A stretch of DNA of 64,000 bases from Escherichia coli (GCF_003019035.1 NZ_CP027447.1), one strand, 5' to 3'; positions 1 through 19,118 are shown, numbered from the stretch's first letter. Notes: generated by a model not told the origin, from the sequence alone. Numbers and translations: made by a program.

Positions 1-636
1 TCTGTTAGCCTCAATCTCTACGTCTGTTTCTGTGTCAATGTCTAAATCATCGAGGATTGGCGTATCTAATTTATCATAGTGCAGAGCAATGTGGGATAAT
101 TCATGCATTAATGTAAACCAAAAGTAATCATATCTCGAATATCTTAAACTTAGACCTATGACTGGTGTTTTATTTGGTAAACAAAAGGTACAGCCATCTA
201 ACTTCATACCTTTGAATGATTTTTCAATTATTAGAATAATACCATATTCTTCTTTAAGGATTCTTGAAATATAATGAATAGATTGTACATCCCTGCTCAA
301 ACTTGCAATTATTCCGAGGTTTTCAAAATCCAGATCTGTGAAGACCTTTGTATTTCCTTTTAAATAGGTGTTTAATGACTTTTTTTCTATTAATGATAAC
401 CATAAATTTATGAGTTCAGAATTAGCATCATCTCTTTTTCTAAATAGTTTATTTTTGTTAAATGTTAAATTTTTTGCTACATCAAGTAGGAATTGATTTT
501 CGTTTTCCATTTCTGGTTTACGGGAAATAATATCTTTTATTTTTTTGCTGTTTTTTATCTTTTGGAAATTTAGTAAAATTTCCAAATCAGACTCACTAAA
601 CTGATTTGATACAAAGAAATCTTTCTCATGCGGCAT
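1..636 (-). CDS. ImmA/IrrE-like HEXXH zinc metallopeptidase domain protein, partial (3' end runs off the window)
   Basis: Absent from the ORF track because it is truncated. Manual minus-strand translation from ATG 636..634 gives about 210 codons with no stop, including ...IGLSLRYSRYDYFWFTLMHELSHIALHYDKLDTPILDD... (HELSH at about 105..91). The start overlaps the stop of the upstream ORF by 11 nt. Confidence 0.5.
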   Translation of the reverse strand, partial: MPHEKDFFVSNQFSESDLEILLNFQKIKNSKKIKDIISRKPEMENENQFLLDVAKNLTFNKNKLFRKRDDANSELINLWLSLIEKKSLNTYLKGNTKVFTDLDFENLGIIASLSRDVQSIHYISRILKEEYGIILIIEKSFKGMKLDGCTFCLPNKTPVIGLSLRYSRYDYFWFTLMHELSHIALHYDKLDTPILDDLDIDTETDVEIEANR

Positions 637-1273
637 TTGAAATTCCTCCGAGAGTTGATGCGACAACCTGTGATGCCTCATAAAATCGGAGATTTTCTTT
701 TTCATGGTCGACGCCAAAATCAGTCATGCCAAGATGGTTATAGAAACCCTCTGCACTTGGGAGTGCATGTAGGCAAAAACCAGGTCTATACCCCCAGTTT
801 GAACAGGCATAATTAATTGTATGTTGGATAAGCTCTTTGCCTACTCCACTATATTTAGGGGTAAAGTTAGGACGAGGACGATTCCAGTATGCTGTTGCAA
901 TATAATCCACGTAGAAAATTTTATTATTATCAAATCGACTTTCTTTTGGATGGTAAAGAACACAAACACCTTGAACTGCGTCGTTTATTTGCAGAAAAAA
1001 CCACTGATAATCATCACCATTACATTGCAAAAGCTTGCGGCACCAGTCCCAATGCCAATCAGAAAGGCTGTTATCTGCCAGAATTTTCCTTGCTAACTCG
1101 TTATCAGTGGCCATACCGGGGTTAGCAGTAATTAGAGCTGACAATAAATCAGCACGATAGGCACCCCATTTGCTCTGCAAGTCAACCACTTTAGCATAGT
1201 CAATCCCTACGTGAATTTGGTAATCAACTGATTTTCCTGAACAATTTTCAACGACCATAAGCTCCCTTTCCAT
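626..1273 (-). CDS. GNAT-family acetyltransferase-like protein (215 aa)
   Basis: ORF track. The segment ...KYSGVGKELIQHTINYACS...GFCLHALPSAEGFYNHLGM resembles GNAT motifs A/B (R/K-x-x-G-x-G, then A..FY...G). Its stop overlaps the start of the downstream peptidase-like ORF. Confidence 0.45.
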   Translation of the reverse strand: MERELMVVENCSGKSVDYQIHVGIDYAKVVDLQSKWGAYRADLLSALITANPGMATDNELARKILADNSLSDWHWDWCRKLLQCNGDDYQWFFLQINDAVQGVCVLYHPKESRFDNNKIFYVDYIATAYWNRPRPNFTPKYSGVGKELIQHTINYACSNWGYRPGFCLHALPSAEGFYNHLGMTDFGVDHEKENLRFYEASQVVASTLGGISNAA

Positions 1274-1505
1274 TGTGTCGGCTCATTTTGACTAATAATA
1301 CAACTTTATAGTCTTTAAGAATGCTCTGCTGGTCAAATTTCTTATTTGATCTATAGAAGGCTATGTTTTGAAGCTGGTTGTTAATCTGGTTATGATGTGG
1401 TCATATTAGAATTGGTAAATCAAACCAATTTTGTTGGTATGAATGATGGTATCTTCGCTAATGTAATATGCTTTATTCACTAAAAATCATAAGGATAGTT
1501 GCGAT

Positions 1506-1528
1506 GTTCGAGTCCGGCATCCGCACCA
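1506..1528 (+). other. tRNA 3'-end-like fragment (T-loop GTTCGAGTCC ... ACCA), not a complete tRNA
   Basis: GTTCGAGTCCGGCATCCGCACCA resembles the T-arm/acceptor 3' end of a tRNA (similar to the 3' end of tRNA-Leu leuX as I recall it). The upstream sequence does not form a cloverleaf. A small hairpin plus T-tract follows at about 1546..1568. Confidence 0.3.
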
Positions 1529-2203
1529 CACTGTATGCAAATCGAGTCGCTCAAGAGCGGCTTTTTTTGTGTCTGAAATCACCCATATCCGTGCAGTATA
1601 TAGGCCTGCCAGAAAAGCAATTCAGTATTCTTCATTTTGTAGTCGATGGTCCCAAGTTTGCTCTGGCTGGAAGCTGCATCGTCCACATTACGTGGGCAGG
1701 GTGGTTTCGCTATGCTACTTGAACGTTTTGACCATGTGGCTCAGGTAGCATATCAAAAGACGTCATTTTGTCTCCACGCCCACCTTGGTGAACATTCAAT
1801 AAATAGTTTCGGTCGAGAGCAGTTATGTAGGGCTAGCAGACGAAATGCGCAGACATCTTGTTGAAGACAATTTTACTGACCACCTGAGAACGCTATTCTA
1901 CCGAATAATATTTATTATCTTGGTGAATAATGATGATTACCTGTGTAACTATGGTTTTATGCTGATGGGACCGGCAGTACAATTTCTGTAGTGTACTCGC
2001 AATTTCAGGTCTCTGGCGTTTATTCTGGTGCAAAGGATGTATGTGATGAAAACTTTGCTACCATGCCATTAAATGCGACCAATATCGGATTATCCATCAG
2101 TTGCTTGTTGTAGATTTCATTGGTTATAAAAATGCAAGGTGTAAAAGATGAAATTTATAATTATTAGTTAAGTGGCTAGTTTTATAGTAATTTAGACAAT
2201 AGG

Positions 2204-4252
2204 ATGTATGGAAAAATGGAAAAAGTTTATGATACCACTAGAATTAGTAATCTTGCTAACGACCCGAAACAGTTTTGTTCTTTTTTTTGTGAGTACATAA
2301 AAAGAGATGATATTAGTATAGATATCGCCTTGGATGTGCTGAGAATATCTTCCATCTATTATAATAGATTTTCAGTTCAGACTGAAGTTGAGTATAACAA
2401 TACATTCAAAAAATGTATTAATGAGCTAGTAAACTCATTTCCTGATAACATTGAACTAATCTCTGAGTTCGAGAGTCAATGTAAAATTATGCATGATATA
2501 AATAATTCTTTCTTTGCGGCTACAAAATGTGCTGGTATTTGGCGTAAAAATACAAAAAAATCACATGCATTAATACTTAATCTCATCATGTTTTGTGAGA
2601 TGTTTTTATCATTATTATCATCCTTGGTTGTGGTCAATGATCCTAAAAAAATGAAGAGGATTTTTCCATTGTTTATCGTTTCTGAAAATATTAATATTCA
2701 TGCTGAACCTGATATCGAATATTTTCGAGTTATCGATAGGGCATTTGATGAGGTAGCCAATTACACCGGAAGAATATTTTCTTATTTACGGACTCATGGG
2801 CCATTGAAACTAACTTCTTGTGTGAATAAACAAACCTTGCTTTCAATGGGAGGGTACCTTAATGAGTGGAATGTTTTTGACTCATTAAGCAGAGTAAGAG
2901 ACTTTTTCAGACTAAGTAGTGCAGTATTTACAAAATTGGATAATAACATTTACTCTCTTGAGGTTGATAGTTTTTGTTTATACCGAGATTATGAGATTGC
3001 AAGAAATAGACTAATGATGAGAGCGTCACATCTATATAGCGAAGTTCATGAATTTAGTAACAAACATTTTCATCTAAATAGTTGGGTAAAGGATCATATG
3101 CCATCTTACTTAAATTCTGATGGCGTTTTTAGCTCATTTCATCTAAGCGAGTTGGAAAATATGTCTCCTGATGACCTTCATGAAGAATATGGGAATATAT
3201 CATTATTTAATTGGGTGCACGCTTATCAATGTTTAGTCGAGTTATCTAAAGAAGAAATGAGCAAAAGATTTTCATCGACAAAACCTATACCCCTACAGTT
3301 GGATCGCTGGCTGATCATAAAAAGCCGTGAGAGTTGGTTATCATTCTTTCAACGTAAGGGGATTGCAGTAGATGCAGCAAAAAAACTGATAGATTATTTT
3401 ACCTTCAATTCAAAATCACATGATCTTAATGATTGCCCATTTATTCCCTGTATGGACGGTTTATGCTTAATGCCTGCATTAATAGCAAATAGCTCAGTGA
3501 CTCGCTCTCTAATGTCATTATTTGGTTCCAAAAAAATTTCTCAAGCAAGTAAAGGGCGATTTCATGAGCAACAATTTATAAAACAAGTTCGTGATGCGGG
3601 GATTAAAGCTTCTCCAATTGATGCTCATGCTAATTATCAGTGCGATTGCGTGATTCTCCTGGATGATTGTTTGATTTTTACAGAACTAAAATCAAATGGT
3701 CAACCAATATATTATGGTAAGTACTATCAGCAAGTGTGTAACATCGTTGGAGATAGCTCATTAATACATGATCATAATAATAAATTTATGCGTTCTTATT
3801 TTCAACAAATAAATCGAATTTCTGAACATTATCTTAATCATCTTAATGTGATCATTAAAGAATTCGAACTACCATCAACATGGCAACCCAAAGGTGTGTA
3901 TAAGCTTATTGTTACTACAACTATGCTCGGTGGGAAATATCATGTGGATGATACATATGTAGCGGACAAATATGCATTATCTAGTTTTTTTCAACGAATA
4001 CCTGGAGTGATATATCAAACAAATGAAAATGGAAAAATGGCGAAAAATATCATTGATGGGTTTGAGTGTTGCGAAGGGGAAATCACTATCGATAAGTTTA
4101 TAGATTATCTTTCCTCTTTGCCCAGTATTAATGCTGTACGTAAAAATATAAAAAAATTAACTTATAGTGTTCGATTTAATGAAAAATTAGTCCATCACCC
4201 TTATTATGATTCTTGGGCTTTTGGCCCATATATTCGTAAGGGAAATGATTAG
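2204..4252 (+). CDS. Hypothetical protein, 682 aa, very AT-rich; possible PD-(D/E)XK-type nuclease motif in the C-terminal third
   Basis: Long uninterrupted ORF in the track. N/K/I/F/Y-rich composition, no recognisable Walker motif. The segment ...CDCVILLDDCLIFTELK... fits a hhhD...ExK nuclease-like pattern. A hairpin plus T-tract follows immediately downstream. Confidence 0.6.
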   Translation: MYGKMEKVYDTTRISNLANDPKQFCSFFCEYIKRDDISIDIALDVLRISSIYYNRFSVQTEVEYNNTFKKCINELVNSFPDNIELISEFESQCKIMHDINNSFFAATKCAGIWRKNTKKSHALILNLIMFCEMFLSLLSSLVVVNDPKKMKRIFPLFIVSENINIHAEPDIEYFRVIDRAFDEVANYTGRIFSYLRTHGPLKLTSCVNKQTLLSMGGYLNEWNVFDSLSRVRDFFRLSSAVFTKLDNNIYSLEVDSFCLYRDYEIARNRLMMRASHLYSEVHEFSNKHFHLNSWVKDHMPSYLNSDGVFSSFHLSELENMSPDDLHEEYGNISLFNWVHAYQCLVELSKEEMSKRFSSTKPIPLQLDRWLIIKSRESWLSFFQRKGIAVDAAKKLIDYFTFNSKSHDLNDCPFIPCMDGLCLMPALIANSSVTRSLMSLFGSKKISQASKGRFHEQQFIKQVRDAGIKASPIDAHANYQCDCVILLDDCLIFTELKSNGQPIYYGKYYQQVCNIVGDSSLIHDHNNKFMRSYFQQINRISEHYLNHLNVIIKEFELPSTWQPKGVYKLIVTTTMLGGKYHVDDTYVADKYALSSFFQRIPGVIYQTNENGKMAKNIIDGFECCEGEITIDKFIDYLSSLPSINAVRKNIKKLTYSVRFNEKLVHHPYYDSWAFGPYIRKGND

Positions 4253-4274
4253 AGCAATTTATTATATAGTCCAT

Positions 4275-4331
4275 GTTATTCACTGATTATATTATTGATA
4301 ATATAATCAGTGAATAACTCTAATTTTTTTA
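4275..4331 (+). terminator. Putative intrinsic terminator after the 682-aa ORF
   Basis: 44-nt near-perfect inverted repeat (gttattcactgattatattatt / gataatataatcagtgaataac) followed by T-tract ttttttt at 4325..4331. Confidence 0.45.
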
Positions 4332-4640
4332 ATGTTGGGGTTTAGCCTGAAGTTGAAATTGGTACTACGGAACGGTATGATCATATCGCATCAAAATATC
4401 AAGGTAGTGATGATTTTCTACGCACCGATCCAGAAATGTGGATTTTATCATCACCATAAGCAATGGCAGCGACAACACCATCAATTTCTATATCAAAGGT
4501 GGTAAAATAAATTAGAAAATTGTTTATTTAATCCATTAGCGATAAGTTTTATTGTTATTTAGCCGAGATATATTCCATTGAAAAAAGTAAATTGGCACTG
4601 ATATTATATCAAATGGGAATAATCCTTTTGTAAATAAGCT

Positions 4641-4830
4641 GAGGAATGTGTTAATTCACATCCAGCGCCTTATAAACCGCATCAACCGGTTCTGAGTAAA
4701 AACTTACCTGAAACTTGGTAAACAACTCTGCCGGAACTGTTGGAATATCCATAGCCGAGGATATCGGCAACAGAACTCGTTTTGCGCCGCTATCGAAGGC
4801 GAGTTGTAAACTAGCGGCAAGATCCTGCAC
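4641..4830 (-). pseudogene. Lon-protease-like C-terminal fragment (gene remnant)
   Basis: Minus-strand translation (V)QDLAASLQLAFDSGAKRVLLPISSAMDIPTVPAELFTKFQVSFYSEPVDAVYKALDVN* resembles the extreme C-terminus of Lon/S16 peptidase domains (compare E. coli Lon ...AAHRGGIKTVLIPFENKRDLEEIPDNVIADLDIHPV...EEVLTLAL). Only about 60 codons, with an in-frame stop immediately upstream. Confidence 0.35.
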
Positions 4831-4874
4831 TGATTATGTCAGCAATATTGAACATACTGCGATAGTTATCAACC

Positions 4875-5804
4875 TCACCCCCTAAAAACCTCTTTCCGAT
4901 GCCACTCCACAAATCCCTCATAAGGGTAATTTTTACGTACCTGCGGCAACGCAATAGTTTTCCCGTCAAAATCCCAGAATAGTTTCTCAACGATCCCTCC
5001 GCCGTTTACCGCATCTGATACCAGTACCCGCATATTTTCATCCAGGCCAATCGATCCTTTATCAAAGGCTTTATGGTGTATTGCACAAAGCGCCAGACCA
5101 TTAGGAATTTCACAAGGACCGCCGTGCTGTTTCCATTTTATATGCGCCGCTTCCAGCGCGACGGTGGTGTCGTCGTGGCGCATATTAAAGCCACATATCG
5201 CGCACTGGTAGTTATAAGCGCGTAATACATTTTTGCGAAATAACGGGTCGCGCTGTTTACGGATTTGCTGGAGATCAAAACCCAGTTCGTCAGCAATTTC
5301 TTCCTGAATACTCTCGGTGAAGTGCGCTTCGAGTATCTGTTGCGCCAGAGTATTGATGAGTTTTTTATTGCCAGTTACCAGGGCGTAGTGCTGTTCATCG
5401 AAACCGCCTGCAACGTGGTATTCAGTCAGTTCCTTCACTGGTGGTTGTCGGCTGCTCCCTGCTGTTGAGCAAAGCCCGGCATTGTGTAATTGCCAGAATC
5501 CGTCGCCTTGTAATCGCCAGAACGGCATATCAGGTCGGTACTGTGAACGCTGTGGCCCAAAACGTTCCAGTAAATTGTGCAGAGGTTCGTAGATTTCCGA
5601 TCCATAATCGAAAAGGCGCGGATGCCCATTCAGGTATCCCGCTAATACGTATAGCAGTAACAATGGTTTATGCGGCGCGCGCTGTTCACCCTTGTGCCAG
5701 ATTTTTATATTGGCAATTGCCTGCTGTAGCGATTTACTGGAAGCCATTGATATCCCTGGCAGTGAAATAATTGCGATCATGCTCGCAAATTTTCTGCTGT
5801 TCAA
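4875..5804 (-). CDS. HNH endonuclease domain protein with uncharacterised N-terminal domain (McrA-like architecture)
   Basis: ORF track. C-terminal ...YQCAICGFNMRHDDTTVALEAAHIKWKQHGGPCEIPNGLALCAIHHKAFD... is an HNH signature (C-x2-C ... H ... N ... C-x2-H). The true start may be the internal Met near 5747. Confidence 0.6.
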   Translation of the reverse strand: MNSRKFASMIAIISLPGISMASSKSLQQAIANIKIWHKGEQRAPHKPLLLLYVLAGYLNGHPRLFDYGSEIYEPLHNLLERFGPQRSQYRPDMPFWRLQGDGFWQLHNAGLCSTAGSSRQPPVKELTEYHVAGGFDEQHYALVTGNKKLINTLAQQILEAHFTESIQEEIADELGFDLQQIRKQRDPLFRKNVLRAYNYQCAICGFNMRHDDTTVALEAAHIKWKQHGGPCEIPNGLALCAIHHKAFDKGSIGLDENMRVLVSDAVNGGGIVEKLFWDFDGKTIALPQVRKNYPYEGFVEWHRKEVFRG

Positions 5805-5958
5805 GCCTGCAAGTGAAGATATATTACCTTGATCTCATTTGTTTTTTTGCTGCCTGTGTACCCTAATTGCCATGCGATGTTGCACCGACGCAAACCACCG
5901 TTTACGCCGGAGGAGTTAAAAGCGCTGATGGATGCAAATAAATCAAATTAATGAACGC

Positions 5959-6939
5959 TCACCTTTCGCGCCAAAACCGCAAAATTGCTTCTACAAACCT
6001 GTCAGAAATAATCCCCCGACGGGCTGCCGCGCTGAAATGACTGCTTCGCAGTGCCGTCGTCCAGTTCTCCGGTGACCGGTACGCTGAACCGTAATATCCC
6101 GTGCTTAAATCGTCCGGGTCTTCAACAGGCGCGTTCGTCAGTCCTCTTTCACCTTGTTGCTGGAAGTCGACGAAAATAATATTGGCTAAAACATTATTTT
6201 GATAATTGCCATAAATAGCTTCATACGCATGAGGGAAATTTTCTTTCCAGTACCAGGTGGTATCGCCGCAAAACCACGGCGCGTCAGTAATATTATTAAG
6301 CTGAGAATGGTATTGTTTTAGATCCCTACGAAAGGCTTCAACCATATGATTAAAGTGTTGAGGGTGTGACGCGTAGTCACTGGTCATTAAGTCAAATTCG
6401 CCTTGCATCCAGCATACGCCGAGGAATTTGTTCTGCGGATTTTTTGCCAGTGCGGCTCGCGTTCTGCTGACTAAATCCTGGTATAGCGGAGTATCCGTTC
6501 CCCAACGACAAGCATCATGGCTGGCTCCGTGCCGTTCTGAATATGTCCCTTCGCTGCCCGCGGTAAAAGCCGATCCGCCACGGCAACACGGAACGATGAG
6601 AACCCCTGCATTATCAGGAATGAAGGGCAGTAATTTCCGTGCAATATGCAGTGCCTGGCCAACGGTGCCGTACTGTGTTTGATGATTCGTTGCCAGAGGA
6701 TGGTGATAACCCTGCATATCCTGAACATCGTGTGGGCAGTGAGTCAGTGGAATAATGTCGTTAAAGTGACATGACGGGCCTCCGGGATGCGTATGCGCAA
6801 ATCTCGCTAATTGTTTAATTCTGGGATGAGGCGCATCTTCCCCGTCCGGTAATGGCAGTCCTTCGCCATACGCCATGGCATTAGACTGACCAGCAACGGT
6901 AAGAACATAGTAATAATCGGGCGATATTATCGCGTTCAT
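5959..6939 (-). CDS. nanS: Sialate O-acetylesterase NanS (YjhS)
   Basis: 326-aa ORF matching E. coli NanS in length and remembered sequence; synteny nanS-nanM-nanC. Confidence 0.85.
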   Translation of the reverse strand: MNAIISPDYYYVLTVAGQSNAMAYGEGLPLPDGEDAPHPRIKQLARFAHTHPGGPSCHFNDIIPLTHCPHDVQDMQGYHHPLATNHQTQYGTVGQALHIARKLLPFIPDNAGVLIVPCCRGGSAFTAGSEGTYSERHGASHDACRWGTDTPLYQDLVSRTRAALAKNPQNKFLGVCWMQGEFDLMTSDYASHPQHFNHMVEAFRRDLKQYHSQLNNITDAPWFCGDTTWYWKENFPHAYEAIYGNYQNNVLANIIFVDFQQQGERGLTNAPVEDPDDLSTGYYGSAYRSPENWTTALRSSHFSAAARRGIISDRFVEAILRFWRER

Positions 6940-7003
6940 ATAATTTTCGCGTAATTGAAATGATAAATTGATAGCAGGGCCCCTTTACCGGGGCCCTGAA
7001 GCG

Positions 7004-8110
7004 TTAGTTTTGTACTGTGACTTTATTATCCTTCACAGAAATTAAAACTGAATCCGTCACCGCTTTGCCGCCTGCAGTTTCACCGCCAATAATTAATAAA
7101 CTATTATTCCAGGGCAATGATACTCCGTAGGCCCGACCTTGCGATAATTCACCCGATTTATCCCATTTCCCGTTATGCCAAAGATGAATATCAGTGCTAT
7201 ATGATTTTTTCAGGCCTTCATGCGCATAGTTCTTACCGTTCTGGTAATTTTCTCGTGAACCTTTGAATCCGGCCCCCCCGGCAAATATAAGAGAATCATT
7301 GCTTATCCCCGCAAAACCGCCAGCGACGCCATCTGGTGATGAGACGGGAGCAAGCTTATTCCATTTTAAATTATTACCGGTGAAATCAAGTTCAAATACG
7401 GCATCCGTTCGCAATCCTGGTTTGGCTTCGCCATTAATAAGCCAGGTTTTATCACCTTTATTCACAACCGCCGCACCAGCCGTTCCGTACCAGGGAGATT
7501 CGCCAGCGTAACTCCATTGCTGTGTTGAGGGATCAAAAGACAACAGAAACTTATTGAAGAAATAATCTTCTGCTTTTTTGTCAAAATAGTGGGCGTTGAT
7601 TTTATCTATAGCGGTTGAATCTTTTCCAGCCTCGTTGAGATCTTCAAAATAGCCATTGAAGATATTCTGGTTAACACCGCCAGTAACATAAGCCTTGCCG
7701 TTGTGTACAAAAGTCACATGACCCGCCATGCCCATCGGCGCGTGCGACATCAATTTAACCCAGCTATTGGTTTTGGGGTTGTATTTGTGTACGTCATTAA
7801 ATACCTGAGTCAAGCCCTCGCTGTTTTTGCCAATGCCGCCAAACACATACAGATTGCCATCAATAAATGCCGAGGTTGCTTGATCTCTTGGTCCGCCAGG
7901 GAATGCAGCTAACGCTGTCCATTTTTTATCTTTGGCCTGTGTATCCAGCTTGTACCATGCCGTACCTGCGCTACCTAAACCAATGTAGACAGTGTCGTTA
8001 TCAATTGCTCCGGTACCACTTTTAAATGCCACAGGAGTTTCCGGTAATACAGACGCGTTTGCGGCAAATGAAGCCATCATGATAGCAAGCGCCGTTATTG
8101 TTTTATTCAT
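7004..8110 (-). CDS. nanM: N-acetylneuraminate mutarotase NanM (YjhT)
   Basis: ORF track 7004..8218; start trimmed to the internal Met MNKTITALAIMM... (signal peptide), giving 368 aa as in K-12. Confidence 0.85.
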   Translation of the reverse strand: MNKTITALAIMMASFAANASVLPETPVAFKSGTGAIDNDTVYIGLGSAGTAWYKLDTQAKDKKWTALAAFPGGPRDQATSAFIDGNLYVFGGIGKNSEGLTQVFNDVHKYNPKTNSWVKLMSHAPMGMAGHVTFVHNGKAYVTGGVNQNIFNGYFEDLNEAGKDSTAIDKINAHYFDKKAEDYFFNKFLLSFDPSTQQWSYAGESPWYGTAGAAVVNKGDKTWLINGEAKPGLRTDAVFELDFTGNNLKWNKLAPVSSPDGVAGGFAGISNDSLIFAGGAGFKGSRENYQNGKNYAHEGLKKSYSTDIHLWHNGKWDKSGELSQGRAYGVSLPWNNSLLIIGGETAGGKAVTDSVLISVKDNKVTVQN

Positions 8111-8129
8111 TGTGACTGTCTCCTGTCTA

Positions 8130-8855
8130 CTACAGTTTAAATGACACACCAATGCGATAACTGTTTTCCGATAAATTATCTCTGCCGTTGTAAACACCCT
8201 GACGGTCCAGGTAGTCATATTCTATGTATGGCGTAATATCGGGCGTCATATGGTATTGTAGAACAAATGCATTTTCCGTCGCCCATTTCTTGTGGTTTGC
8301 ATAGCGATAATCGTTCTGTTTGCTGTATAGCGTCGTTTGCCATGCGAAGGTGAAATCACTATTAATATGGTAAGTGACATATCCATCCCAACGATGAACG
8401 TTATCACGAGACATATCACCGGATAAGTCTTGTTGTCGGTAAGCTTTCCAGTCGTAACGATAGCGAATGCCAAAATTAAGATCTTTTGTCGCGTCCCAGG
8501 ACAGTTTTACGTAGGGTCCGTAGCGTGTGCCGTTGCTGCTAAAATGCGTTAACATTCCCGGGCGCACCGTCCATTGATCATCAAGTTTAATCGCGTAATT
8601 AACTTCAACCTGAACATCATTGAGTGCGGCATTTTCCTTTTTATTATCATGAATGGTATTCCAGGTATTACTTTCCATGCTTGCCCACCATCCATTTTGC
8701 CATCCCTCACTGACTTTGAGTCGAGTCTCATAGGCGTGGCTTCCACTACGATATCCACCACGTACGTCCAGTGTCGCAGCCTGAGAAATTAATGGTGACG
8801 AAAAGCACAGTAATAATACGCCAGAAAGTATTTTAGCCTTTTTCATAAATTTCAC
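8130..8855 (-). CDS. nanC: N-acetylneuraminic acid outer-membrane channel NanC (YjhA)
   Basis: ORF track; signal peptide, beta-barrel-like alternating pattern, C-terminal F-K-L. The true start may be 9 nt downstream (MKKAKILSG...). Confidence 0.8.
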   Translation of the reverse strand: MKFMKKAKILSGVLLLCFSSPLISQAATLDVRGGYRSGSHAYETRLKVSEGWQNGWWASMESNTWNTIHDNKKENAALNDVQVEVNYAIKLDDQWTVRPGMLTHFSSNGTRYGPYVKLSWDATKDLNFGIRYRYDWKAYRQQDLSGDMSRDNVHRWDGYVTYHINSDFTFAWQTTLYSKQNDYRYANHKKWATENAFVLQYHMTPDITPYIEYDYLDRQGVYNGRDNLSENSYRIGVSFKL

Positions 8856-9267
8856 TCATTTGTAGGATACAGAAAGCAATACAAAGCCCGCATAAACAAT
8901 TAGCATTTATGTTGTGTAATATTTTTTTGCCAGGCTTATAGTGTCTTTGGCAACGGGTAACTGTATTTTATATTTTTTGTATAAGGTCTCCTGTGAAAAT
9001 TCTCTTTTCACATTATTTAAATAAACAGAGATCCAGATTAAATACCTGAGTATAAAATCTCTTCTGATGTTTAATTGATTTGAATGTTCGTAAGCTATAT
9101 CACTTACTCAATCCATTTTACCCAGAGTCATAAAATAGAGTGTCTGTTGATCTCATTTTCATATTCCTTTCAGACTGAAGTGCATTTTCATCACCCGATG
9201 TGAAAGAACTGAAGTGATGTTTGCCATAGATTACGAGATGCCCAGTCTCATTGACTATCGTGGTGCA

Positions 9268-9290
9268 CCTTTATACCTGTTATACCAGAT
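9268..9290 (-). promoter_or_regulatory. NanR-operator-like GGTATA repeats in the nanC-fimB intergenic region
   Basis: Minus-strand reading atctGGTATAacaGGTATAaag (plus-strand TATACC repeats at 9272..9286) matches the NanR GGTATA-repeat operator type known for nan promoters. Confidence 0.45.
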
Positions 9291-10299
9291 CAAAAATCAC
9301 GCAATCCATACAACAAAACCAGATTTGCAATTCGTGTCACAAAATATGTCGATCTTTTTCTAAGAGGCAGATGCCATGTGAAGCCAGACGAACACTTGCA
9401 GTGGTCTTCAAAAACTAAAAATTTTCTTTTAAATATATGTTTTATAAATAATTTATTTAGAATCTAAACAAAGAAAGCTTTGCAAGCTAACTCAGTGAGC
9501 TTGGTGAAAATAAGTGTTTACCCGCCATCAGGCTGAGCATAATTCTCACCATGAAATATGTTTCTTGGTTTGTGGCTTGTAACTGGTCACTCCTGATGTC
9601 GATCTGGAGAGGCTTGTTGATGTTGGTGTTTTCAGGATGATGTTTCACTTAGTTTGTTTGCCGTATCGTCCGGCGAATAGCTGTGATTGAGGAAGGTTTA
9701 AGTCGTAGTGACCAAAGCCATATTTACCAACGGATGTAGATGAAAAAGCGTCGCCTGCGTTCCCCCATATCTCCAGGATAAAAAGGAATGTAACAATCTC
9801 GTGGCGTAAGCTGATGAACCAGGCAGGAATAATCGCTAGGGACCTAAGAATTAGCATGATAATAGCCACTAAGAAATAACTGCGTTCCATGAAATAGCCA
9901 TTTTGTGGCAAATGCAGTTGACTAATAATGTCATATGTGAGACGGCTAGTTGAACGAATATTAAATTTTGCTGAATTTTTTATGTTGATTTTACTTGTTA
10001 CAGAACATATCACATGATATATAGATAAGATTAGTTGCATTAATGATGAGGGTTATTATTAGATTCGTATCCGATTGATAAATATATAAAGGTACATAGC
10101 ATGCAAGAGCATGGCGTTTGTATGGCAACGTTATTATAATTAACTGTTGCTACTCTATTTAAGTTCACTCAGAAGAACTGGTCCACTTACGTTAGTTATT
10201 AAGCAAACGTTCGCTTTTATAAACATAATCAGGATTAAAATGTTGGATTATTGCTAACCCAGCACAGCTAGTGCGCGTCTGTAATTATAAGGGAAAACG

Positions 10300-10902
10300 A
10301 TGAAGAATAAGGCTGATAACAAAAAAAGGAACTTCCTGACCCATAGTGAAATCGAATCACTCCTTAAAGCAGCAAATACCGGGCCTCATGCAGCACGTAA
10401 TTATTGTCTGACTTTGCTTTGTTTTATTCATGGTTTCCGGGCGAGTGAAATTTGTCGATTGAGGATTTCGGATATTGATCTTAAGGCAAAGTGTATATAT
10501 ATCCATCGATTAAAAAAAGGCTTTTCAACAACGCACCCGCTATTGAACAAAGAAGTTCAGGCTTTAAAAAACTGGTTGAGTATCCGTACTTCTTATCCGC
10601 ATGCTGAGAGCGAGTGGGTATTTTTATCACGTAAGGGGAATCCGCTTTCTCGGCAACAGTTTTACCATATTATCTCGACTTCTGGTGGTAATGCCGGGTT
10701 GTCACTGGAGATTCATCCGCACATGTTACGCCATTCGTGTGGTTTTGCTTTGGCGAATATGGGAATAGATACGCGACTTATCCAGGATTATCTTGGGCAT
10801 CGCAATATTCGTCATACTGTCTGGTATACCGCCAGCAATGCAGGGCGTTTTTACGGCATCTGGGATAGAGCCAGAGGGAGACAGCGTCACGCTGTTTTAT
10901 AG
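10300..10902 (+). CDS. fimB: Type 1 fimbriae recombinase FimB
   Basis: 200-aa tyrosine-recombinase ORF (…HPHMLRHSCGFALANMGIDTRLIQDYLGHRNIRHTVWYT…); position upstream of fimE. Confidence 0.9.
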   Translation: MKNKADNKKRNFLTHSEIESLLKAANTGPHAARNYCLTLLCFIHGFRASEICRLRISDIDLKAKCIYIHRLKKGFSTTHPLLNKEVQALKNWLSIRTSYPHAESEWVFLSRKGNPLSRQQFYHIISTSGGNAGLSLEIHPHMLRHSCGFALANMGIDTRLIQDYLGHRNIRHTVWYTASNAGRFYGIWDRARGRQRHAVL

Positions 10903-11379
10903 AGATAGTTGAGATACCATGGATGGTGTTAAAAACTACATTATTCTTACGATATATCAAAAATGATTAACCATTTATTAATTGATGTTATTGTAAGTGT
11001 GATTCTTAATTATCATAATAAACATTAAGTTAACCATATCCATACAAAATACAATGGTTTATGTTCTTCAAAATAAATAAACAAAATCATTCATAAATTT
11101 ACACATCACTTAAATCCTCCTGTTTCCACACTTTTTTCTTTATTTTTTAAGCAACTGGAAGTTAATCTTCTGCAATCTATTGTTATATTGAATCAAATCA
11201 ATGAAAATAGATGTTGTCACATCGGTGATATTTTATTTTTGTATGATATTTAATGTAATTGACTGATAGCCACATCACTTCGTGTGTGGTTATCTTTTTA
11301 TCTATTGGGCTAATTTTGACCGATTGAGGTTTCCTATAGGTATTCATTCAAATATATCTCAGTCAGGAGTACTACTATT

Positions 11380-11976
11380 GTGAGTAAACGTCGTTATCTT
11401 ACCGGTAAAGAAGTTCAGGCCATGATGCAGGCGGTTTGTTACGGGGCAACGGGAGCCAGAGATTATTGTCTTATTCTGTTGGCATATCGGCATGGGATGC
11501 GTATTAGTGAACTGCTTGATCTGCATTATCAGGATCTTGACCTTAATGAAGGTCGAATAAATATTCGCCGACTGAAGAACGGATTTTCTACCGTTCACCC
11601 GTTACGTTATGATGAGCGTGAAGCCGTGGAACGCTGGACCCAGGAACGTGCTAACTGGAAAGGCGCTGACCGGACCGACGCTATATTTATTTCTCGCCGT
11701 GGGAGTCGGCTTTCTCGCCAGCAGGCCTATCGCATTATTCGCGATGCCGGTATTGAAGCTGGAACCGTAACGCAGACTCATCCTCATATGTTAAGGCATG
11801 CTTGCGGTTATGAACTGGCAGAGCGTGGTGCAGATACCCGTTTAATTCAGGATTATCTCGGGCATCGAAATATTCGCCATACTGTGCGTTATACCGCCAG
11901 TAATGCTGCTCGTTTTGCCGGATTATGGGAAAGAAATAATCTCATAAACGAAAAATTAAAAAGAGAAGAGGTTTGA
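11380..11976 (+). CDS. fimE: Type 1 fimbriae recombinase FimE
   Basis: 198-aa tyrosine recombinase paralogous to FimB; synteny. Confidence 0.9.
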   Translation: MSKRRYLTGKEVQAMMQAVCYGATGARDYCLILLAYRHGMRISELLDLHYQDLDLNEGRINIRRLKNGFSTVHPLRYDEREAVERWTQERANWKGADRTDAIFISRRGSRLSRQQAYRIIRDAGIEAGTVTQTHPHMLRHACGYELAERGADTRLIQDYLGHRNIRHTVRYTASNAARFAGLWERNNLINEKLKREEV

Positions 11977-12023
11977 TTTAACTTATTGATAATAAAGTTA
12001 AAAAACAAATAAATACAAGACAA

Positions 12024-12337
12024 TTGGGGCCAAACTGTCCATATCATAAATAAGTTACGTATTTTTTCTCAAGCATAAAAATATCAAAAAACGACAAAAA
12101 GCATCTAACTGTTTGATATGTAAATTATTTCTCTTGTAAATTAATTTCACATCACCTCCGCTATATGTAAAGCTAACGTTTCTGTGGCTCGATGCATCTT
12201 CCTCATTCTTCTCTCCAAAAACCACCTCATGCAATATAAAAATCTATAAATAAAGATAACAATAGAATATTAAGCCAACAAATAAACTGAAAAAGTTTGT
12301 GCGCGATGCTTTCCTCTATGAGTCAAAATGGCCCCAA
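12024..12337. promoter_or_regulatory. fimS: fimS invertible promoter element (fim switch), apparently in OFF orientation
   Basis: 9-bp inverted repeats TTGGGGCCA (12024..12032) and TGGCCCCAA (12329..12337) bound a 314-bp element. A sigma70-like promoter (-35 TTGAGA at 12072..12067, 18-nt spacer, -10 TATGAT at 12048..12043) lies on the minus strand, reading toward fimE rather than fimA. Confidence 0.7.
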
Positions 12338-12456
12338 ATGTTTCATCTTTTGGGGGGAAACTGTGCAGTGTTGGCAGTCAAACTCGTTGACAAAACAAAG
12401 CGTACAGAACGACTGCCCATGTCGATTTAGAAATAGTTTTTTTAAAGGAAAGCAGC

Positions 12457-13005
12457 ATGAAAATTAAAACTCTGGCAATCGTTGTTCTGTCGGCTCTGTC
12501 CCTCAGTTCCGCAGCGGCTCTGGCTGATACTACGACGGTAAATGGTGGGACCGTTCACTTTAAAGGGGAAGTTGTTAACGCCGCTTGCGCAGTTGATGCA
12601 GGCTCTGTTGATCAAACCGTTCAGTTAGGACAGGTTCGTACCGCATCGCTGGCACAAGAAGGAGCAACCAGTTCTGCTGTCGGTTTTAACATTCAACTGA
12701 ACGATTGTGACACTACTGTTGCAGACAAAGCTGCTATTGCCTTCCTTGGTACCGCAATTGATGGAACTCATCCTAACGTATTAGCTTTGCAGAGTTCAGC
12801 TGCGGGTAGCGCAACAAAAGTTGGTGTGCAGATCCTGGACAGAACGGGTGCTGTGCTGGCGCTGGACGGTGCGACATTCAGTGAGCAAACAACCCTGAAT
12901 AACGGTACTAACACCATTCCGTTCCAGGCGCGTTATTATGCAACCGGTGTCGCAACCCCGGGTGCTGCTAATGCGGATGCGACCTTCAAGGTTCAGTATC
13001 AATAA
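12457..13005 (+). CDS. fimA: Type 1 fimbrial major subunit FimA
   Basis: 182-aa pilin with signal peptide and C-terminal ...KVQYQ. Confidence 0.9.
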
Positions 13006-13069
13006 CCTACCCAGGATCAGGGACGTCATTACGGGCAGGGATGCCCACCCTTGTGCGATAAAAATAACG

Positions 13070-13609
13070 ATGAAAAGGAAGAGATTATTTCTGTTAGCGT
13101 CGTTGCTGCCGGTGTTTGCTCTGGCCGGAAATAAATGGAATACCACGCTGCCCGGCGGAAATATGCAATTTCAGGGCGTCATTATTGCGGAAGCTTGCCG
13201 GATTGAAGCCGGTGATAAACAAATGACGGTCAATATGGGGCAAATCAGCAGTAACCGGTTTCATGCGGTAGGGGAAGATAGCGCACCGGTGCCTTTTGTT
13301 ATTCATTTACGGGAATGTAGCACGGTGGTGAGTGAACGTGTGGGTGTGGCGTTTCACGGTGTCGCGGATGGTAAAAATCCGGATGTGCTTTCCGTGGGAG
13401 AGGGGCCAGGGATAGCCACCAATATTGGCGTAGCGTTATTTGATGATGAAGGAAACCTCGTACCGATTAATCGTCCTCCAGCAAACTGGAAACGGCTTTA
13501 CTCAGGCTCTACTTCGCTACATTTCATCGCCAAATATCGTGCTACCGGGCGTCGGGTTACTGGCGGCATCGCCAATGCCCAGGCCTGGTTCTCTTTAACC
13601 TATCAGTAA
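13070..13609 (+). CDS. fimI: Fimbrial protein FimI
   Basis: ORF track 12938..13609, trimmed to Met at 13070 ([19 protein letters not shown] signal peptide), 179 aa. Confidence 0.85.
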
Positions 13610-13645
13610 TTGTTCAGCAGATAATGTGATAACAGGAACAGGACA

Positions 13646-14371
13646 GTGAGTAATAAAAACGTCAATGTAAGGAAATCGCAGGAAATAACATTCTGCTTGC
13701 TGGCAGGTATCCTGATGTTCATGGCAATGGTGGTTGCCGGACGCGCTGAAGCGGGAGTGGCCTTAGGTGCGACCCGCGTAATTTATCCGGCAGGGCAAAA
13801 ACAAGTGCAACTTGCCGTGACAAATAATGATGAAAATAGCACCTATTTAATTCAATCATGGGTGGAAAATGCCGATGGTGTTAAGGATGGTCGTTTTATC
13901 GTGACGCCACCTCTGTTTGCGATGAAGGGAAAAAGAGAGAATACCTTGCGTATTCTTGATGCAACAAATAACCAATTGCCACAGGATCGGGAAAGTTTAT
14001 TCTGGATGAACGTTAAAGCGATTCCGTCAATGGATAAATCAAAATTGACTGAGAATACGCTACAGCTCGCAATTATCAGCCGCATTAAACTGTACTATCG
14101 CCCGGCTAAATTAGCGTTGCCACCCGATCAGGCCGCAGAAAAATTAAGATTTCGTCGTAGCGCGAATTCTCTGACGCTGATCAACCCGACACCCTATTAC
14201 CTGACGGTAACAGAGTTGAATGCCGGAACCCGGGTTCTTGAAAATGCATTGGTGCCTCCAATGGGCGAAAGCACGGTTAAATTGCCTTCTGATGCAGGAA
14301 GCAATATTACTTACCGAACAATAAATGATTATGGCGCACTTACCCCCAAAATGACGGGCGTAATGGAATAA
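13646..14371 (+). CDS. fimC: Periplasmic pilus chaperone FimC
   Basis: 241-aa PapD-like chaperone ORF; synteny. Confidence 0.9.
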   Translation: MSNKNVNVRKSQEITFCLLAGILMFMAMVVAGRAEAGVALGATRVIYPAGQKQVQLAVTNNDENSTYLIQSWVENADGVKDGRFIVTPPLFAMKGKRENTLRILDATNNQLPQDRESLFWMNVKAIPSMDKSKLTENTLQLAIISRIKLYYRPAKLALPPDQAAEKLRFRRSANSLTLINPTPYYLTVTELNAGTRVLENALVPPMGESTVKLPSDAGSNITYRTINDYGALTPKMTGVME

Positions 14372-14437
14372 CGCAGGGGGATTTTTTCGCCTGAATAAAA
14401 AGAATTGACTGCCGGGTGATTTTAAACCGGAGGAATA

Positions 14438-17074
14438 ATGTCATATCTGAATTTAAGACTTTACCAGCGAAACACACAATGCTTGCATATTCGTAAGCAT
14501 CGTTTGGCTGGTTTTTTTGTCCGGCTCTTTGTCGCCTGTGCTTTTGCCGCACAGGCACCTTTGTCATCTGCCGAACTCTATTTTAACCCGCGTTTTTTAG
14601 CGGATGATCCCCAGGCTGTGGCCGATTTATCGCGTTTTGAAAATGGGCAAGAATTACCGCCAGGGACGTATCGCGTCGATATCTATTTGAATAATGGTTA
14701 TATGGCAACGCGTGATGTCACATTTAATACGGGCGACAGTGAACAAGGGATTGTTCCCTGCCTGACACGCGCGCAACTTGCCAGTATGGAGCTGAATACG
14801 GCTTCTGTCTCCGGTATGAATCTGCTGGCGGATGATGCCTGCGTGCCATTAACCTCAATGATCCATGACGCTACTGCGCATTTAGATGTTGGTCAGCAGC
14901 GACTCAACCTGACGATCCCTCAGGCATTTATGAGTAATCGCGCGCGTGGATATATTCCTCCTGAGTTGTGGGATCCCGGTATTAATGCCGGATTGCTCAA
15001 TTATAATTTCAGCGGAAATAGTGTACAGAATCGGATTGGGGGTAACAGCCATTATGCATATTTAAACCTACAGAGTGGGTTAAATATTGGTGCGTGGCGT
15101 TTACGCGACAATACCACCTGGAGTTATAACAGTAGCGACAGATCATCAGGTAGCAAAAATAAATGGCAGCATATCAATACCTGGCTTGAGCGAGACATAA
15201 TACCGTTACGTTCCCGGCTGACGCTGGGTGATGGTTATACTCAGGGCGATATTTTCGATGGTATTAACTTTCGCGGCGCACAATTGGCCTCAGATGACAA
15301 TATGTTACCCGATAGCCAAAGAGGATTTGCCCCGGTGATCCACGGTATTGCTCGTGGTACTGCACAGGTCACTATTAAACAAAATGGGTATGACATTTAT
15401 AATAGTACGGTGCCACCGGGGCCTTTTACCATCAACGATATCTATGCCGCAGGTAATAGTGGTGACTTGCAGGTAACGATTAAAGAGGCTGACGGCAGTA
15501 CGCAGATTTTTACCGTACCCTATTCGTCAGTCCCGCTTTTGCAACGTGAAGGGCATACACGTTATTCCATTACGGCAGGAGAATACCGTAGTGGAAATGC
15601 GCAACAGGAAAAACCCCGCTTTTTCCAGAGTACATTACTCCACGGCCTTCCGGCTGGCTGGACAATATATGGTGGAACGCAACTGGCGGATCGTTATCGT
15701 GCGTTTAATTTCGGTATCGGGAAAAATATGGGGGCACTGGGCGCTCTGTCTGTGGATATGACGCAGGCTAATTCCACACTTCCCGATGACAGTCAGCATG
15801 ACGGAAAATCGGTGCGTTTTCTTTATAACAAATCGCTCAATGAGTCAGGCACGAATATTCAGTTAGTGGGTTACCGTTATTCGACCAGTGGGTATTTTAA
15901 TTTCGCTGATACAACATACAGTCGAATGAATGGCTACAACATCGAAACACAGGATGGTGTTATTCAGGTTAAGCCGAAATTCACCGACTATTACAATCTC
16001 GCTTATAACAAACGCGGGAAATTACAACTCACCGTTACTCAGCAACTCGGGCGCACATCAACACTGTATTTGAGTGGTAGCCATCAAACTTATTGGGGAA
16101 CGAGTAATGTCGATGAGCAATTCCAGGCTGGATTAAATACTGCGTTCGAAGATATTAACTGGACGCTCAGCTATAGCCTGACGAAAAACGCCTGGCAAAA
16201 AGGACGGGATCAGATGTTAGCTCTTAACGTCAATATTCCTTTCAGCCACTGGCTGCGTTCTGACAGTAAATCTCAGTGGCGACATGCCAGTGCCAGCTAC
16301 AGCATGTCACACGATCTCAACGGTCGGATGACCAATCTGGCCGGTGTATACGGTACGTTGCTGGCAGACAACAACCTCAGCTATAGCGTGCAAACCGGCT
16401 ATGCCGGGGGAGGCGATGGTAATAGCGGAAGTACAGGCTACGCCACGCTGAATTATCGCGGTGGCTACGGCAATGCCAACATCGGTTACAGCCATAGCGA
16501 TGATATTAAGCAGCTCTATTACGGAGTCAGCGGTGGGGTACTGGCTCATGCCAATGGCGTAACGCTGGGGCAGCCGTTAAACGATACGGTGGTGCTTGTT
16601 AAAGCGCCTGGCGCAAAAGATGCAAAAGTCGAAAACCAGACAGGAGTGCGTACCGACTGGCGGGGTTATGCCGTGCTGCCTTATGCCACTGAATATCGGG
16701 AAAACAGAGTGGCGCTGGATACCAATACCCTGGCTGATAACGTCGATTTAGATAATGCGGTCGCTAACGTTGTTCCCACCCGTGGGGCGATCGTGCGAGC
16801 AGAGTTTAAAGCGCGCGTTGGGATAAAACTGCTCATGACGCTGACCCACAATAATAAGCCGCTGCCGTTTGGGGCGATGGTGACATCAGAGAGTAGCCAG
16901 AGTAGCGGCATTGTTGCGGATAATGGTCAGGTTTACCTCAGCGGAATGCCTTTAGCGGGAAAAGTTCAGGTGAAATGGGGAGAAGAGGAAAATGCTCACT
17001 GTGTCGCCAATTATCAACTGCCACCAGAGAGTCAGCAGCAGTTATTAACCCAGCTATCAGCTGAATGTCGTTAA
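14438..17074 (+). CDS. fimD: Outer-membrane usher FimD
   Basis: 878-aa usher ORF; synteny. Confidence 0.9.
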   Translation: MSYLNLRLYQRNTQCLHIRKHRLAGFFVRLFVACAFAAQAPLSSAELYFNPRFLADDPQAVADLSRFENGQELPPGTYRVDIYLNNGYMATRDVTFNTGDSEQGIVPCLTRAQLASMELNTASVSGMNLLADDACVPLTSMIHDATAHLDVGQQRLNLTIPQAFMSNRARGYIPPELWDPGINAGLLNYNFSGNSVQNRIGGNSHYAYLNLQSGLNIGAWRLRDNTTWSYNSSDRSSGSKNKWQHINTWLERDIIPLRSRLTLGDGYTQGDIFDGINFRGAQLASDDNMLPDSQRGFAPVIHGIARGTAQVTIKQNGYDIYNSTVPPGPFTINDIYAAGNSGDLQVTIKEADGSTQIFTVPYSSVPLLQREGHTRYSITAGEYRSGNAQQEKPRFFQSTLLHGLPAGWTIYGGTQLADRYRAFNFGIGKNMGALGALSVDMTQANSTLPDDSQHDGKSVRFLYNKSLNESGTNIQLVGYRYSTSGYFNFADTTYSRMNGYNIETQDGVIQVKPKFTDYYNLAYNKRGKLQLTVTQQLGRTSTLYLSGSHQTYWGTSNVDEQFQAGLNTAFEDINWTLSYSLTKNAWQKGRDQMLALNVNIPFSHWLRSDSKSQWRHASASYSMSHDLNGRMTNLAGVYGTLLADNNLSYSVQTGYAGGGDGNSGSTGYATLNYRGGYGNANIGYSHSDDIKQLYYGVSGGVLAHANGVTLGQPLNDTVVLVKAPGAKDAKVENQTGVRTDWRGYAVLPYATEYRENRVALDTNTLADNVDLDNAVANVVPTRGAIVRAEFKARVGIKLLMTLTHNNKPLPFGAMVTSESSQSSGIVADNGQVYLSGMPLAGKVQVKWGEEENAHCVANYQLPPESQQQLLTQLSAECR

Positions 17075-17083
17075 GGGGGCGTG

Positions 17084-17614
17084 ATGAGAAACAAACCTTT
17101 TTATCTTCTGTGCGCTTTTTTGTGGCTGGCGGTGAGTCACGCTTTGGCTGCGGATAGCACGATTACTATCCGCGGCTATGTCAGAGATAACGGCTGTAGT
17201 GTGGCTGCTGAATCAACCAATTTTACTGTTGATCTGATGGAAAACGCGGCGAAGCAATTTAACAACATTGGCGCGACGACTCCTGTCGTTCCATTTCGTA
17301 TTTTGCTGTCACCCTGTGGTAATGCCGTTTCTGCCGTAAAAGTTGGGTTTACCGGTGTTGCAGATAGCCACAATGCCAACCTGCTTGCACTTGAAAATAC
17401 GGTGTCAGCGGCTTCGGGACTGGGAATACAGCTTCTGAATGAGCAGCAAAATCAAATACCCCTTAATGCTCCATCGTCCGCGATTTCGTGGACGACCCTG
17501 ACGCCAGGTAAACCAAATACGCTGAATTTTTACGCCCGGCTAATGGCGACACAGGTGCCTGTCACTGCAGGGCATATCAATGCCACGGCTACCTTCACTC
17601 TTGAATATCAGTAA
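17084..17614 (+). CDS. fimF: Fimbrial minor subunit FimF
   Basis: Pilin-like ORF with signal peptide; synteny. Confidence 0.85.
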
Positions 17615-17626
17615 CTGGAGATGCTC

Positions 17627-18130: not shown

Positions 18131-18149
18131 ACCCGAAGAGATGATTGTA

Positions 18150-19052: not shown

Positions 19053-19118
19053 AGAAATCACAGGACATTGCTAATGCTGGTACGCAATATTACCTGAAGC
19101 TAAAAACCTGCACGTTAG

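Follow-up and report, generated by a model that had tools for sequence, protein, structure and literature searches.

Layered anatomy of the nanS-proximal end of the Escherichia coli leuX hotspot, with two candidate defence modules

We analysed a 64,000-nucleotide stretch of Escherichia coli DNA (GCF_003019035.1, NZ_CP027447.1), hereafter called the window, and concentrated on its positions 1–5958, which end at the gene nanS. The best explanation is that this region forms the nanS-proximal end of the published E. coli hotspot #37, a site of integration and defence at tRNA-leuX; we assign this explanation as a whole a probability of roughly 0.85. It consists of three layers: the right end of an integrative and mobilisable element (IME) at 1–1533; DNA lying outside the mobile element at 1534–4366, which includes a gene for a 678-aa nuclease-like protein; and, at 4367–5958, the scars of former defence genes together with a restriction enzyme and an HNH fragment. 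Two modules, the 678-aa protein and an IME-borne gene cassette that opens with a GNAT-type acetyltransferase, are not among the named defence systems, and in this the locus differs from the known content of the hotspot.

We identify the hotspot because the locus shares its flanks with other genomes, because leuX lies nearby in comparison genomes, and because the arrangement agrees with the published description. The right flank nanS-nanM-nanC-fimB and the left anchor tRNA-Leu leuX were found in every genome inspected, with leuX located 10–20 kb leftward in five comparison genomes; leuX itself is outside the window, and its position here is taken from these proxies. The leuX locus has been described as defence hotspot #37, the most occupied and most diverse of the E. 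coli defence hotspots, filled in 97.3% of genomes, holding 31 defence-system types as well as P4-like satellites, and, with only one other hotspot, harbouring BREX (Hochhauser et al. 2023, PMC10121019; PMC12707154). The region analysed here occupies the same place between leuX and the nan/fim genes, a site also taken by KpLE2 in K-12 and by pathogenicity island (PAI) II in strain 536, and it shows the same habit of integrase elements, P4-like satellites, IMEs, BREX, restriction–modification (RM) and phosphorothioate (PT)-related genes swapping for one another. Content at this place varied between strains and was rich in defence genes, other strains carrying a full BREX-1, type I RM with McrBC, AbiE, a P4-like satellite or PAI II.

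An earlier, sequence-only reading of this DNA had proposed a variable hotspot in which independently acquired cargo builds up and which may well house defence systems, and the breakpoints, the alternative occupants and the published hotspot bear this out. The genes that it listed (a GNAT/peptidase pair, a 682-aa open reading frame (ORF), an HNH gene and gene fragments) are all present. Its statement that K-12 is arranged differently upstream of nanS also proved right on comparison: the K-12 order is yjhP-yjhQ-topAI-yjhR (a pseudogene), a fragment of the same HNH gene, ythB and nanS.

Both base composition and population frequency change from block to block. GC content was 29.2% at 1–636, 41.2% in the GNAT gene, 31.6% at 1274–1504, 43.2% at 1581–1990, 32.8% in the 678-aa gene, 48.5% in the HNH gene and 49.2% in nanS, with 46.1% for the whole window, a profile that confirms the alternation (29.2% to 49.2% between blocks) noticed from the sequence alone. 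Our population comparison set comprised 5426 complete E. coli genomes, none of which covered at least 80% of 1–5958. Segment 1–1500 was present in 4 of them, segment 1581–4400 in 332 (~6%), and the HNH gene, at 80% or more of its length, in 1706, with traces in 4858. With segments this unequally distributed and the whole stretch in no genome, the alternative that the region is conserved core sequence fails. An IME with a GNAT cassette joined to the '536-type' flank was likewise found in none of the 5426, which distinguishes this instance from known occupants of the hotspot.

The boundary of the mobile part could be placed to within the attR site. Three genomes with unrelated elements at leuX lose their similarity exactly to the left of 1505–1533 and are nearly identical to the right of it; the three divergent elements are the IME seen here, PAI II of uropathogenic E. 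coli (UPEC) 536 and the P4-like satellite of an O158:H23 strain. The divergence of three unrelated elements at this point means that 1–1533 belongs to an att-bounded element and that 1534–5958 does not. This qualifies the earlier reading: a mobile element with present-day bounds includes only the part left of 1533. The first ~40–47 nt of the leuX-type terminator flank are common to 1767 genomes. At two adjacent positions (GGCATCCG here versus GGCCTTCG) this attR departs both from genomic leuX and from the attR that the same IME has in strain S19-651; as far as sequence comparison goes, the difference suggests decay or exchange at the crossover region. A sigma-70 promoter scan found 19 candidates, with 19.3 expected from shuffling, and no promoter is claimed; an Rfam scan of 1–7000 returned chance-level matches only.

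To the right of the 678-aa gene lie the remains of a BREX type 1 locus. Over the BrxL C-terminus and the flank downstream of it, identity to intact loci at the same site is 85–94%; in TW10828 and 1506D011 these loci run from the PT-dependent enzyme through a PDDEXK nuclease gene and brxA-brxB-brxC-pglX-pglZ-brxL to a variable gene. From these intact loci it follows that the window lineage lost ~14.6 kb between about 4832 and 4859–4874. Unlike a complete BREX-1, the locus keeps 59 codons of brxL, while brxA, brxB, brxC, pglX, pglZ and most of brxL have been deleted and are absent from 4833–4874; with this loss BREX function is impossible here. The variable gene downstream of brxL in TW10828 is ~85% identical to the remnant of an 'anti-phage END nuclease' gene in the window, the similarity running through the brxL-downstream spacer, and on translation the matching peptide of the remnant is split over two frames. 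At least 80% of the scar query was covered in 456 genomes, a count that fits the sum of 332 genomes with the 678-aa block and ~124 with intact BREX at ~85% identity (the 124 being obtained by subtraction); if so, scar and block are never found apart, and a single ancestral arrangement is indicated. The palindrome after the 678-aa gene contains CACTGATTAT, and this 10-mer recurs precisely where the BrxL scar breaks off on the right, within a 20-nt, 85% complementary match (4828–4847); it may be a deletion microhomology, or chance.

Between the scar and nanS stands an intact restriction enzyme gene with a sulfur-binding domain (SBD) and an HNH domain. The ORF spans 4875–5804 (−), with the real start at 5747, and matches NF045808 at 437.1 bits (cut-off 180), ORF residues 25–308 aligning to profile positions 2–284 of 284. 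Residues 5–142 match the sulfur-binding domain of ScoMcrA (5zmo, E = 4.6e-6; also 5zmn and 5zmm), residues 170–249 match the HNH domain of TagI, and the H...N...H residues are present. EcoWI, the characterised E. coli enzyme, has a mass of 33.4 kDa, cleaves at GpsAAC/GpsTTC N7/N6 and acts as a barrier to dnd+ plasmids (PMC7461809). Our enzyme resembles EcoWI/SprMcrA in its full-length NF045808 match, its SBD and HNH domains and its predicted 33.1 kDa, a likeness of profile, domains and size; the GpsAAC/GpsTTC N7/N6 specificity is assumed for the enzyme in the window. Most genomes retain only the nanS-proximal part of the gene, K-12 among those keeping a fragment, and the equivalent of the short HNH fragment at 5847–5951 is annotated 'HNH endonuclease, incomplete, missing N-terminus' in five genomes. 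This gene is no recent arrival but the old, widely shared right-hand anchor of the hotspot beside nanS. A 4.83-Mb record labelled 'DH5alpha' (NZ_CM135829.1) is 96.9% identical to 4865–5958, including the whole PT-dependent enzyme gene; other K-12 derivatives (DH1, TG1) hold only a ~250-bp fragment, and the record may be mislabelled.

Table 1 Features of positions 1–5958 and the adjoining nanS gene.
Positions	Strand	Feature	Basis or remark
1..636	−	ImmA/IrrE (Peptidase_M78) gene, 5' 636 nt, N-terminal ~212 of 282 codons	Extends beyond position 1; second cassette gene
626..1273	−	GNAT-type acetyltransferase, 215 aa (210 aa from second Met)	ORF; first cassette gene
1274..1504	.	AT-rich non-coding right end of the IME, upstream of the GNAT operon	Common to S19-651 and XJW9B277 up to attR
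1505..1533	+	attR, imperfect copy of the tRNA-Leu leuX 3' end, ATGTTCGAGTCCGGCATCCGCACCA	Sequence comparison with leuX
1534..1580	+	leuX-type intrinsic terminator, chromosomal flank	Terminator scan: hairpin 1544–1563, then T run
1581..2215	.	Stretch without annotated gene, 635 nt	In 332 genomes, like the 678-aa gene; annotated 'none' in all listed
2216..4252	+	Solitary NERD-like PD-(D/E)XK nuclease gene, 678 aa, candidate single-gene defence effector	
4275..4318	+	Perfect palindrome with 21-bp arms and T run, 23 nt past the stop codon	Likely bidirectional terminator
4367..4553 (approx.)	−	Remnant, first ~62 codons of 'anti-phage END nuclease' gene, frameshifted with stop	~85% DNA identity
4651..4830	−	BrxL C-terminal 59 codons	TIGR02653 at 3.8e-24, profile 617–675 of 675; PADLOC BrxL at 1.7e-19
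4875..5747	−	Phosphorothioate-DNA-dependent restriction endonuclease (SBD + HNH, EcoWI type), 290 aa, 33.1 kDa	NF045808, intact
5847..5951	+	HNH endonuclease C-terminal fragment, 34 codons	ORF; abuts nanS, older gene
5959..6939	−	nanS, 326-aa ORF	ORF list; first gene of the conserved right flank, outside the variable region

The 678-aa gene of the middle layer corresponds to the ORF at 2204–4252 (+), which reads as 682 aa and, from the RefSeq start at 2216, as 678 aa. In 331 genomes the ORF is intact, shows at least 99% conservation and retains its active site, and its carriers include UPEC 536. The protein has no sequence match in Pfam, NCBIfam, PHROG or PDB, and among the named systems of PADLOC 2.0 and NCBIfam 20.0 its sole PADLOC match was marginal (PDC-M29B, E = 0.0012, 50 residues). 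A profile search of 1.84 billion representatives recovered at least 360 family clusters (50% identity), mostly of 600–700 aa, so that the label 'orphan', given to the 682-aa ORF on first inspection, was wrong. Close relatives are restricted to Enterobacterales. No viral homologues were found by tblastn in 50,697 phage records, or in BFVD at E ≤ 0.001. A scan of a genome collection with a 7-sequence alignment found only Izhakiella and an E. coli-like contig in a Lachnospiraceae metagenome-assembled genome; this 4.2-kb contig (SFGN01000178.1) bears a 99%-identical copy of the E. coli gene and is probably a binning contaminant. The 635-nt leader in front of the gene has no Rfam match and is not conserved upstream of homologues in other genera.

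Conservation was assessed in an alignment of 111 full-length members with 14–55% identity to the query. P408, G447, D477, E490 and K492 are invariant, and D403, D406, E451, Q531 and D584 nearly so (E451 in at least 90%); the conserved E451/D477/E490/K492 pattern gives the signature of a PD-(D/E)XK nuclease. Pfam NERD was detected in 11 of the 111 relatives at E ≤ 0.001 and in 26 at E ≤ 0.1. Our structural conclusions come from the AlphaFold model built on the same alignment (pLDDT 92.2, pTM 0.92), an AlphaFold2 model from 7 sequences (pLDDT 55.9) having been discarded. The model begins with a long helical N-terminal region, continues with a helix–strand module at ~360–440 resembling a winged helix and with the nuclease core, and ends in a C-terminal part rich in beta structure. 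The core adopts a restriction-endonuclease-like fold, with nuclease-fold matches to Upx, FokI, NucS, McrC, Shedu and Can2, and full-length structural relatives in the AlphaFold database belong to Firmicutes and Proteobacteria and carry the UniProt label 'NERD domain-containing protein'. Likeness to Upx, FokI-like type IIS enzymes, Shedu SduA and Can2/Card1 is limited to ~110–210 residues at 9–15% identity; PADLOC gave no match to them, and the 678-aa protein differs in having no CARF, helicase or methylase partner.

Genomic context was examined in about a dozen loci, and no conserved partner gene stood beside family members in them. The neighbours of distant members were type I RM with a Cap4 nuclease; Tn7-like cargo with an SLFN gene, OLD-TOPRIM and UvrD genes and a WYL gene; HEPN_AbiU2 with Abi_C; type I RM with Mrr and HNH_2/CTD11; and a HigBA-like pair, while others lay at the ends of prophage lysis cassettes, once beside pPIWI-RE. 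Because of this context, the gene's low GC content, its occurrence in 6% of E. coli genomes and its place in hotspot #37, we consider a stand-alone defence nuclease the best reading of the 678-aa protein, at odds slightly better than even. Several points weigh against it. Two homologues stand alone among housekeeping genes, the context evidence comes from those dozen or so loci, the query fails the Pfam NERD model PF08378 even at E = 10, and defence is inferred rather than observed.

The strongest rival, which we judge unlikely but worth keeping in view, is that the protein has no immune role. It could instead be a nuclease that is selfish or addictive, a toxin used between bacteria, or a nuclease of DNA repair or recombination. 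NucS, Hjc and other repair enzymes share the PD-(D/E)XK fold, two homologues are the solitary ones among housekeeping genes, one homologue adjoins type VI secretion system genes, and in Priestia a small upstream ORF overlaps the homologue and could be a partner. Speaking against it are the patchy, island-like distribution of this low-GC gene in 6% of E. coli genomes, the repeated appearance of RM, Abi or Gabija-like genes or prophage ends as neighbours, and the finding that no immunity-like gene is conserved beside it. The Priestia case concerns a Priestia filamentosa plasmid, where a 176-aa hypothetical ORF precedes the homologue and overlaps its start by 13 nt (7480–8010 of locus L013); this ORF may be a lineage-specific partner gene, and it has no equivalent in E. 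coli.

Much less probable is that the 678-aa protein was an accessory effector of BREX, has outlived its BREX system and is now functionless. Its gene does lie immediately past the brxL remnant's 3' end, a slot that in other strains is filled by variable nuclease-type genes and that resembles the position of END nuclease or PLD genes downstream of brxL. It is convergent to brxL, however, and not co-oriented; it replaced the END gene, to which it has no sequence similarity; and BREX genes were found in 0 of the ~12 homologue contexts. The intact, highly conserved ORF with its active site kept also argues against a functionless relic. Still less credit goes to the idea that the gene is cargo of whichever element now sits at leuX (IME, P4-like satellite or PAI) and moves with it. 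In O158:H23 it lies ~1.2 kb past the P4-like primase gene, and in strain 536 at the end of PAI II, yet in all three genomes it stands to the right of the attR copy, where the unrelated elements end and the block stays 99% identical. It also co-occurs in every case with the BREX/END scar (332 genomes, with the 456-genome coverage count in agreement), not with a particular element. Carriage by the P4-like satellite or the PAI was accordingly rejected on the position of attR. That the whole mosaic is chance compositional variation within conserved core DNA has next to no chance of being correct: apart from the somewhat AT-rich nan genes on the right (43–49% GC) nothing was found in its favour, it is rejected on the population frequencies, and the sharp homology breakpoints between blocks and the GC content at third codon positions (25.9% in the 678-aa gene versus 46–48% in neighbouring genes) speak against it as well.

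For the stand-alone defence nuclease, a functional comparison is offered by ZwsA (Zowangsin) of P. aeruginosa, reported as a stand-alone multidomain NERD RNA endonuclease active against ssRNA phages, with the catalytic residues E535/D567/E580/K582 (bioRxiv 10.64898/2026.04.06.716636). Both are single large genes of ~700 aa found in genomic islands, with a helical N-terminal region before a NERD-type centre, and both show the spacing E...D-x12-E-x-K (E535/D567/E580/K582 versus E451/D477/E490/K492), as judged from the published residue numbers. None of the 150 top family representatives carries the D567/E580/K582 motif at the ZwsA positions, and a profile search with the 111-sequence alignment returned the same 91 close matches, with no named relatives and no ZwsA. 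By analogy, ZwsA may serve as a lead to function and as a lead only.

The second module is a cassette whose first gene and three quarters of whose second gene make up the coding part of the IME end. The GNAT and peptidase genes overlap by 11 nt. GNAT has a weak Pfam match (Acetyltransf_10 at 6.5e-5), no PADLOC or NCBIfam match, and a rare family of 10 clusters. The DNA of 1–636 is 98–99.8% identical in XJW9B277 and S19-651, where it is annotated as an ImmA/IrrE metallo-endopeptidase. The full-length proxy peptidase matches Pfam Peptidase_M78 at 2.6e-10 and PADLOC PD-Lambda-2_B at 2.4e-47, the latter over profile positions 175–396 of 402 only; no helix-turn-helix (HTH) was found in it by Pfam, and the HigA-like HTH part of the PD-Lambda-2_B profile is unmatched. 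The left segment is 99.8% identical to S19-651, whose ~12 kb leuX element ends with the same attR and reads integrase, replication protein, relaxase, sce7726, beta-family, ImmA/IrrE, GNAT, attR. Outside the window, the beta-family protein of S19-651 matches PADLOC PD-Lambda-2_C at 1.8e-47 and sce7726 matches PADLOC P4 cII at 1.3e-22. In Burkholderia diffusa, Peptidase_M78 and Beta_protein genes come after a 45%-identical GNAT, and a Phage_P4_cII gene is convergent to them; since these are the same four genes in the same order, a four-gene cassette is conserved. In XJW9B277 the cassette adjoins a 1646-aa DEAD/DEAH helicase in a larger relaxase-bearing element (4586–9526 of locus L002), followed by a decayed integrase and insertion sequence elements.

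PD-lambda-2 is an experimentally shown abortive-infection system in which a HigB-like gene comes first, an HTH–peptidase fusion second and a P4-beta-like gene third (Vassallo et al. 2022, PMC9519451). The cassette peptidase matches the peptidase part of component B, and the beta-family protein matches component C, both near 1e-47, whereas the first gene encodes a GNAT and not a HigB-like protein, and cII is present. The classical P4 gop-beta-cII set is similar in its beta and cII homologues, seen in the proxies, and differs in that no gop match was found and GNAT and M78 take the place of gop. On sequence similarity, then, the cassette appears to be a PD-lambda-2 variant with GNAT in first position and cII retained, and by comparison with these two systems it most likely acts as an abortive-infection module of the toxin/antitoxin style, of the PD-lambda-2 or gop-beta-cII kind. 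Against this, the GNAT has no counterpart in either system, the beta and cII genes and a quarter of the peptidase gene lie outside the window and are supplied by proxy genomes, and the defensive role is deduced from kinship.

These findings suggest the following history. Tyrosine-integrase elements insert at the leuX 3' end and duplicate that end, and the right end of one such element, an IME of ~12 kb in the closest proxy genome, fills 1–1533 and stops at attR. To the right of attR, DNA without an integrase of its own changes by replacement and deletion. There, an AT-rich 2.8 kb block (1581–4366) with the 678-aa nuclease appears to have replaced most of the END-nuclease gene, and the ~14.6 kb deletion took the PDDEXK nuclease gene and brxA-brxL while sparing the BrxL tail; the BREX deletion and the block insertion may have occurred in either order, a point that counts against too definite an account. 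As for mechanism, the SBD-HNH enzyme is predicted to cut incoming phosphorothioate-modified DNA. In the 678-aa protein, the helical N-terminal region and the winged-helix-like module may select or sense foreign nucleic acid, which the NERD-like PD-(D/E)XK centre (E451, D477, E490, K492) would then cleave.

Some further observations concern neighbouring occupants of the hotspot and its annotation. UC4224 and S19-651 carry a ~19 kb integrase island at the same hotspot, directly abutting the PT-dependent enzyme (1080–19841 of locus L005; 16727–31500 of L006), and encoding a Ser/Thr kinase, a helicase of the HerA type, large hypothetical proteins (one of them 1428 aa long), HsdM/HsdS and McrBC; several of its large genes are without annotation. 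The P4-like satellite at leuX in O158:H23 holds a 'nucleotide-binding protein' gene and a hypothetical gene between int and psu (5295–7329 of locus L001), the classical defence-cargo slot of P4. Finally, nanS is intact in the window, yet the annotation pipeline PGAP labels its equivalent 'sialate O-acetylesterase, incomplete' in every comparison genome including K-12, and also places a 90-nt 'hypothetical protein' on the strand opposite nanS; the 'incomplete' label looks like an annotation artefact rather than a sign of a pseudogene.

A mosaic is in itself ordinary for the leuX locus, and the hotspot has been described before; new here are the exact anatomy of this instance and the two candidate modules. 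The authors of the hotspot survey stated that the mode of mobilisation at hotspot #37 was not readily determined (PMC10121019). The integrase-less anatomy of the nanS side bears on this question: attR, the BREX scar, the END-nuclease remnant and a PT-dependent enzyme gene that is being eroded show that DNA outside an att-bounded element turns over here through replacement and deletion. The 678-aa nuclease, well modelled, catalytically conserved and present in 6% of complete E. coli genomes, is a directly testable defence candidate. The GNAT-peptidase-beta-cII cassette links PD-lambda-2 to the classical P4 gop-beta-cII and suggests an exchangeable toxin module.

Taken jointly, these two modules would allow a bolder reading, to which we give an even chance. 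In its first part, the 678-aa protein would be the founding member from E. coli of an uncharacterised, widespread family of stand-alone immune nucleases, combining a helical sensor, a winged-helix-like module with a D-x-x-D-x-P motif and a NERD-type PD-(D/E)XK centre, and acting alone against phages or plasmids, possibly on RNA as ZwsA does. In its second, GNAT-M78-beta-cII would be a new four-gene abortive-infection system, and, if this is true, an acetyltransferase would stand in for the HigB or gop toxin in such a cassette.

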